From assembly GCF_051903065.1 (NCBI RefSeq), contig NZ_CP178438.1: a stretch of 64,000 nucleotides of DNA, one strand, 5' to 3'. Shown in pieces: positions 15,018-15,360 of the stretch. Below the pieces are notes generated by a model. The model was not told the DNA's origin, did not search any database, and saw only the letters and a list, made by a program, of their open reading frames with translations. Origin of the DNA: Escherichia coli. Lineage in GTDB: Bacteria > Pseudomonadota > Gammaproteobacteria > Enterobacterales > Enterobacteriaceae. The translations under genes were made by a program, and so were the position numbers. Within the stretch, counting starts at the first letter, position 1; the number at the start of each line of letters is the position of its first letter.

Positions 15018-15360
15018 TTACACTCCTGTTTAATAAATTATATTGCCCAGGGCGCATTCTAAAACACAATAAAATTGCCACTATCAAAAATCGCTCATTT
15101 TTATAACGCAGTATATTAATAAAAATAAGAACGAAGATTAAGTTATCCAGAGGTTACTGTTGCGTCTGTGGTCGTAACAACATCCGACGTGGTGATGTGT
15201 CAAATGAGACATTCTGATGATCAGAGGGGTTATCGCGTTTACGGACTGTGGATGGCAGAAAACTTTCAGGATCAGGTATCCATTTTAAACCAGAAAATGA
15301 GTGAGTTTGCCCCATCCATACCCCCACGCGGTGAGATCGGATGTCATTAAACAAGCCAGG

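Follow-up and report, generated by a model that had tools for sequence, protein, structure and literature searches.

The 340-bp module upstream of each of two neighbouring leucine-rich-repeat (LRR) genes in the Escherichia coli yedK–fliE interval is made up of three layers, each with a history of its own, and is no single functional element. In the window, by which we mean the whole stretch of 64,000 nucleotides of E. coli DNA analysed here, the module occurs twice, as copy A upstream of an LRR pseudogene and as copy B between an intact LRR gene and fliE. The account that we favour, in which a prophage remnant and the upstream region of an LRR gene lie side by side in a scar that was then duplicated, is very probably correct as a whole. 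A preliminary description of this DNA had offered two readings of the module: that it could carry the promoter and 5' leader for the LRR gene, or that it is what remains of a decayed gene, for example an integrase. These two alternatives are not exclusive, as each describes a different part of the composite.

We argue that a temperate phage with a lambda/P22-type tyrosine integrase once integrated at the 3' end of fliE. Such a phage would carry the last fliE codons just downstream of its int gene, so that fliE would be kept intact and int left adjoining it. The prophage would later have been deleted down to the last ∼50 codons of int. This remnant now lies beside an AT-rich spacer of ∼100 bp and, in many strains, beside a low-GC LRR cassette (yedN/espR), which would have brought its own upstream region of 81 bp. 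The tandem duplication of 1.96 kb would have arisen later by illegitimate recombination, when the base that follows the int remnant was joined to the middle of yedL at a GGT microhomology; this would have placed the whole composite before a second LRR gene.

The element is already annotated, as intG or as a partial integrase, and the espR3–espR4 duplication is also known; therefore the module itself holds no novelty. The sole addition made here is the link, drawn from sequence comparison, between the scar, a living phage lineage and a putative att core in the tail of fliE. In the literature searched, we found no paper that describes this link and none that names fliE as a phage integration site; absence there is no proof that either is unpublished. 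Our results are mainly of value for correct annotation, since they guard against reading the module as a new gene, RNA or mobile element. The anatomy of the locus, with its three layers, its junction and its att core, also accounts for the high variability of the yedK–fliE interval among E. coli strains.

Layers of the module and their duplication

The window was matched to annotated genomes, which placed the region in the yedK–fliE interval of the E. coli chromosome. A 6-kb stretch around the module is 100% identical in three complete genomes and ∼94.5% identical in O157:H7 and O55:H7. The PGAP annotation, read from an identical genome (window coordinate = locus coordinate + 11499), gives the gene order yedE, yedF, yedK, yedL, LRR pseudogene, yedL', LRR gene, partial integrase, fliE and fliF. 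Table 1 lists the features of the locus.

Table 1. Features of the duplicated module and its neighbours (window coordinates)
Feature	Position	Strand	Evidence
LRR/DUF5503 pseudogene, first LRR copy (espR3-like)	13882..15017	-	PGAP, identical genome
Layer a, copy A, 81 bp, upstream region of the LRR pseudogene (espR3-like)	15018..15098	-	98.8% to copy B; promoter scan
Layer b, copy A, AT-rich spacer of ∼100 bp, A-type patch	15099..15200	.	in all strains examined, LRR-less ones included
Layer c, copy A, 3' remnant of a phage tyrosine integrase gene, with 1 nt inserted close to its end	15201..15350	+	BLASTP 80%, blastn 89% over 169 nt
Copy A tail and duplication junction, without att core	15351..15369	.	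...TCAACA/GGT/CAGTATGGG; junction comparison, alignments
yedL', partial (3') acetyltransferase gene copy, left end of the second duplication unit	15369..15698	+	repeat search 98%; PGAP 'GNAT family N-acetyltransferase, incomplete'
LRR gene, second copy (espR4-like), intact, 379 aa	15836..16975	-	PGAP, identical genome
Layer a, copy B, 81 bp, upstream region of the intact LRR gene (espR4-like, 379 aa)	16976..17056	-	alignment; promoter scan
Layer b, copy B, spacer with B-type allele (type of K-12)	17057..17161	.	alignments
Layer c, copy B, integrase 3' remnant, frameshifted, to the ancestral stop TAG at 17316..17318	17162..17318	+	blastn 92% over 195 nt
Putative att core common to phage attP and chromosome	17319..17355	.	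TCAACAGGTTACAAAACCTACACCTGCATG..CATCA; overlaps fliE stop (17336..17338, -) and the last 5-6 fliE codons
fliE	17336..17650	-	PGAP, identical genome

Repeat search and pairwise alignment agree that yedL', the LRR gene and the module form one unit of 1,955-1,958 bp that is duplicated in tandem, with a start-to-start spacing of 1,954-1,959 bp. The two copies of the module (15018..15369 and 16976..17328) are ∼90% identical, and each lies upstream of an LRR start codon (the complement of ATG at 15017 and 16975). That the module is duplicated along with the gene, as the preliminary description had claimed, is borne out by both methods; of the coordinates given there, the left ends are right, while the right ends, 15360 and 17325, fall a few bases short of the true ends at 15369 and 17328. 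The first LRR copy is frameshifted and has an internal stop, and the second is intact. The LRR-repeat part is only ∼77% identical between the copies (14105..14404 versus 16063..16362), compared with 97% for the gene ends.

The boundaries of the layers were drawn by aligning the two window copies with K-12, O55:H7, the LRR-less IAI39 and O43 RM10042. Identity between copies A and B is 98.8% in layer a (15018-15098), 77.9% in layer b (15099-15200) and 88.7% in layer c (15201-15350). Layer a has a GC content of 33%, and its copies differ at one base. It is absent from the LRR-less IAI39 and O43 RM10042, which keep layers b and c. As layer a is present only where the LRR gene is present, it belongs to the LRR cassette. 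In layer b, the low identity is found in a patch of 54 bp (15099..15152 versus 17057..17110), which is 66.7% identical between copies, whereas its flanks are 97-99% identical. K-12 carries the B-type allele of this patch, and copy A of O55:H7 the A-type allele. Comparison of these alleles suggests that the divergent patch represents two old alleles or a gene conversion, and not simple divergence after the duplication. Neither layer a nor layer b has a DNA match among 50,697 phage records searched by blastn, and layer b has no Pfam family. The module sequence is confined to the yedK–fliE locus, where it occupies one to three places per genome.

The junction between the two units indicates how the duplication arose. 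Similarity between the copies ends abruptly past ...CAACAGGT. At this point, the trinucleotide GGT is present in both parental sequences, namely after CAACA beside fliE (17326..17328) and in yedL (13413..13415). The units are arranged head to tail with a novel junction at a short microhomology, as in a tandem segmental duplication, and on this comparison the duplication arose by illegitimate recombination at the 3-bp GGT. The att core is missing from copy A because the junction cuts it off. At least 344 complete E. coli genomes carry the junction sequence; this count is specific to the junction and hence a lower bound. As an upper bound for genomes with two copies, 1,494 genomes cover at least 80% of the 6-kb query, a number that overestimates them because one-copy genomes can cover the query twice. 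The duplicated arrangement is far beyond chance, as seen in other E. coli genomes.

The relatives of the module in annotated genomes are consistent with these layers. In K-12, the pseudogene intG (b1936, 'cryptic prophage PR-G') is the ortholog and takes the same position between the LRR pseudogene yedN and fliE. K-12 aligns along the whole module, but it has one copy (yedN yedM/yedN_1/yedN_2, then intG, then fliE) where the window has two, and it lacks 11 bp (ACAAGCATAGT), including the ancestral stop codon of int, that are kept in the window copies and in the phage. The same two-copy architecture as in the window (yedL, espR3, 'int, yedL', espR4, 'int, fliE) is found at the espR3/espR4 locus of O157:H7 and O55:H7, at ∼94.5% identity to the window over 6 kb; the LRR genes are named espR3 and espR4 in O55:H7. 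Unlike at that locus, the first LRR copy of the window is a frameshifted pseudogene, and it is annotated only as DUF5503 or LRR protein. Literature searches on espR3/espR4 and yedN returned gene-presence surveys or unrelated matches, and the match for ECs2672 contains espR3 only as an entry in a table of expression data.

Strains differ in the structure of the yedK–fliE interval. IAI39 has yedL and lacks the LRR gene, O43 RM10042 lacks both, and OkiPb01711 is without yedL but combines the LRR gene with the old int scar and an intact P22-like prophage of 39 kb. A hairpin resembling a terminator (GCAGCAC...GTGCTGC), with a T-rich run after it, lies downstream of the yedL' stop, at 15700..15745; it is presumably the yedL terminator duplicated along with the unit, and our simple terminator scan missed it because the loop is long.

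The integrase remnant and the fliE attachment site

On sequence comparison, layer c is the 3' end of a phage tyrosine integrase gene, comprising its last ∼50 codons. Its frame (15201..15350 in copy A and 17162..17318 in copy B) matches residues 383-434 of a 434-residue phage tyrosine integrase. A tblastn search of 50,697 phage genomes returned 174 records that match layer c. The best is Escherichia phage IdasGreatGrand (PP925829), with 86% amino acid identity over 49 residues (E 2e-19); Enterobacter phage CobraSix follows at 81%, and the integrases of mEp460 and Stx2a phages are more distant at 57%. When copy A was compared with the IdasGreatGrand integrase by BLASTP, residues 383-423 matched at 80% identity (E 2e-21). 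At the nucleotide level, blastn gave 89% identity over 169 nt for copy A and 92% over 195 nt for copy B, and in the int-attP regions of IdasGreatGrand and CobraSix the last ∼50 int codons, the stop and a fliE-like core are 89-92% identical to the window. The similarity to phage stops sharply upstream of CAAATG (15201). The translated search of the module against protein families that the preliminary description had called for thus finds phage integrase similarity in the plus frame, and its second reading, that of a decayed integrase gene, is borne out directly by the match of layer c to the integrase C-terminus.

The matching region of IdasGreatGrand is the extreme end of the int gene, which itself follows the excisionase gene. 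In this phage, the full 434-residue integrase has an arm-binding domain (Arm-DNA-bind_2, residues 7-70) and a catalytic domain (Phage_integrase, residues 203-396), whereas the window keeps only ∼12% of the gene, that is, the last 14 residues of the catalytic domain and the C-terminal tail. A complete catalytic domain (R-K-H-R-H-Y) and an open frame are absent; only residues 383-434 of the 434 are left. The translated fragment gave no Pfam match, because only these last 14 catalytic-domain residues are present. PGAP calls copy B 'integrase, incomplete' at 17190..17297 (plus strand). A word-based search of 5.8 billion proteins gave no matches other than orthologous short ORFs from E. coli, some of them labelled 'integrase'; as these labels are circular, they were not used as evidence.

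Across eight alleles, the differences from phage int are distributed 35:35:38 over the three codon positions, and four alleles carry indels (copies A and B of the window, O43 and copy A of O55:H7), with copy B being frameshifted after a few codons. Since the differences are even over codon positions and indels are present, the int remnant is a dead, neutrally decaying pseudogene and not the gene of a small protein.

In copy B, identity to the phage does not end at the int stop. It runs on through TCAACAGGTTACAAAACC and the fliE stop as far as the final codons of fliE. IdasGreatGrand thus has, directly after int, its own copy of the FliE end (...M-S-M-Q-V-stop), which is the layout to be expected if a phage inserts into the 3' end of a gene and makes that gene whole again. 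The candidate attB in the fliE tail reads ...CCTGCATG(CT/GA)CATCA. The att core occurs once in the window, at fliE; a second copy, marking the far end of the ancestral prophage, was not found within the window, and the LRR cassette may have been either cargo of that prophage or a separate insertion.

Phage 21 and e14 are prophages of this kind: they insert into the 3' end of the host gene icd and bring a substitute for the end that they displace. The fliE site resembles them in that attP holds the terminal codons and the stop of the target gene, so that the gene would be intact after integration. It differs in that only ∼6 codons would be replaced, and in that the bacterial site already holds an older int remnant, which would offer incoming phages ∼195 bp of homology.

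That the site can still be occupied is seen in strain OkiPb01711, in which the old remnant is followed by the 39-kb P22-like prophage (tailspike ... xis, int) and then by fliE. This prophage is flanked by a direct repeat of ∼45 bp, TCAACAGGTTA(C/A)AAAACCTACACCTGCATG(CT/GA)CATCA. The repeats are neighboured by phage-arm sequence on one side and by fliE on the other, giving reciprocal phage and bacterial arms, and the CT/GA polymorphism is distributed between them as a crossover within or beside ...CATCA would predict. A block of identity with attP and direct repeats flanking a prophage are thus both found, at the sequence level, as in a Campbell-type attachment site. These arrangements show that the putative att core beside copy B is apparently still used by phages. 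The anatomy of the locus also indicates which copy could still receive a prophage: only copy B would serve as attB, as copy A is without the core.

A query made of xis, int and att of the phage was covered to at least 80% in 8 of the 5,426 complete genomes, and in six of these eight fliE was among the annotated features under the match. By sequence, these matches split into two lineages, at 98% and ∼79% identity to the phage. The short int remnant, by comparison, is found in 5,159 of the 5,426 genomes. Two viral contigs carry an int that is 99.5% identical beside the same core. The remnants at fliE are not all alike, which implies that they decayed independently or stem from separate integrations: in Escherichia sp. 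E1V33, residues 255-433 of int lie next to fliE (locus coordinates 1089..1625), and in another E. coli lineage, with an ORF of 63 residues, int residues 254-264 are fused to residues 386-420. Since both intact prophages and varied remnants are found at fliE, its 3' site appears to have been used repeatedly by phages.

The fliE tail itself may bear a trace of such events. The third-from-last sense codon of fliE (Ser; tail at 17344..17355, minus strand) is AGC in the window and in K-12, and TCC in IAI39, in O43 RM10042 and in the phage attP. This synonymous swap of three bases looks like the footprint of a replacement by a phage-borne fliE end.

A scan for the exact pattern with one genome per species gave three hits, in Escherichia sp. 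E1V33 and in two E. coli-like contigs of unrelated assemblies, and says little on distribution beyond Escherichia. Escherichia-type yedL-LRR-'int or 'int-fliE sequence in a contig of a Collinsella sp. MAG (2,070 bp) and in one of Nocardioides malaquae (268 bp, coverage 0.76) is almost certainly assembly contamination.

Transcription of the LRR genes and other readings of the module

Layer a most likely supplies the ribosome-binding site and a sigma-70 core promoter of each LRR gene, with a leader of ∼13 nt. In both copies, a Shine-Dalgarno sequence, AGGAG (in copy A the complement of 15024..15028), lies five bases upstream of the ATG, and a perfect TATAAT is present on the minus strand (15042..15037 in copy A and 17000..16995 in copy B). 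The best -35 element for this TATAAT is a weak TTTAGA at a spacer of 15 bp, where the criterion was 16-18 bp, and a standard promoter scan found no minus-strand promoter in the module. A genomic-SELEX study in K-12 (Shimada 2014; PMC3946193) reported an in vitro peak of RpoD holoenzyme in the divergent yedM<>intG spacer, yedM being an old name for the 5' part of yedN. The rightward promoter predicted in that study, TTGCCC-16-CACAAT, maps exactly to 15043..15070 and 17001..17028 on the plus strand, in layer a. The local promoter is the least secure step of our account, and we infer it from consensus matching together with the in vitro binding in K-12. The earlier proposal of a promoter and 5' leader is accordingly plausible for the 81 bp of layer a, given the Shine-Dalgarno sequence, the TATAAT and the K-12 SELEX peak.

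The main competitor is that the LRR genes have no promoter of their own and are read through from the FlhDC-dependent fliE promoter, in the minus-strand order fliE, module B, espR4-like gene, module A and espR3-like gene, so that the module would be an untranslated intercistronic spacer. We consider this improbable. It would agree with the common strand of fliE, both modules and both LRR genes, and with the terminator scan, which predicts no intrinsic terminator over the 360 nt from the fliE stop (17336) to the LRR start (16975). In an rpoS mutant of EDL933 in exponential phase, moreover, Z3023, Z3024 and Z3026 were among only 11 genes with lowered expression, together with motAB and yhjH (PMC2907692). 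However, fliE is absent from that list, whose flagellar members motAB and yhjH belong to class 3 and depend on FliA; ChIP gave no FliA signal in the vicinity of fliE, and the module holds no sigma-28 consensus, the best matches of the scan lying inside the LRR genes or in the fliE–fliF region. Also, fliE has been treated as a monocistronic operon (PMC4183435), Rho-dependent termination is likely in 360 nt of untranslated RNA, and the conserved TATAAT and the RNA polymerase SELEX peak favour a local promoter. A broader proposition, in which the 3' end of fliE would be an old, reused phage site, phages would rewrite the last fliE codons, and the effector-like LRR genes, with no terminator predicted between them and fliE, would be partly controlled by FlhDC through read-through, is in our view unlikely when taken with all its parts.

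Returning to the composite scar, two further readings would give the module a product or a mobility of its own. It is highly improbable that it encodes a functional small protein. The preliminary description had seen no convincing ORF, only short frames such as 15168..15350 and 15154..15354, and this judgement holds: both frames exist (60 residues from a GTG start on the plus strand, and 66 residues from a TTG start on the minus strand), and databases contain many 'integrase' or 'hypothetical' entries of 60-114 residues from the same locus. The plus-strand ORF is, however, simply the decaying integrase frame, and it is frameshifted or interrupted by stops in copy B and in several strains. The ends of the short ORFs vary among strains, substitutions are even over codon positions, neither ORF has a Pfam family, and every database match comes from the same locus. 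More remote still is a structured regulatory RNA (riboswitch, leader or sRNA) or a small mobile element (MITE or IS end), which a conserved, non-coding and duplicated sequence might suggest. We rejected a structured RNA family since there was no relevant Rfam match, the only one at E up to 1 being a chance match to a snoRNA model outside the module, and no unusually stable folding, the z-scores of the two halves on the minus strand (+1.13 and +0.39) being no better than for shuffled sequence. An independent mobile element was likewise rejected, as no inverted repeats were found and the sequence occurs at a single locus.

Two observations on promoter motifs may be added. On the plus strand, the standard scan reports a good sigma-70-like match, TTTACA-16-TATATT (10 of 12 positions), at 15017..15044 and 16975..17002, where it overlaps the start codon of the LRR gene. 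Its direction is opposite to that gene and leads through the int scar, and in copy B a transcript from it would be antisense to fliE. The leftward yedM motif printed in PMC3946193, CTGACA-16-ACTAAT, is not present in the K-12 locus. The same motif is printed there for the yefM row, and its entry in the yedM row (43.32 min) is probably a table error.
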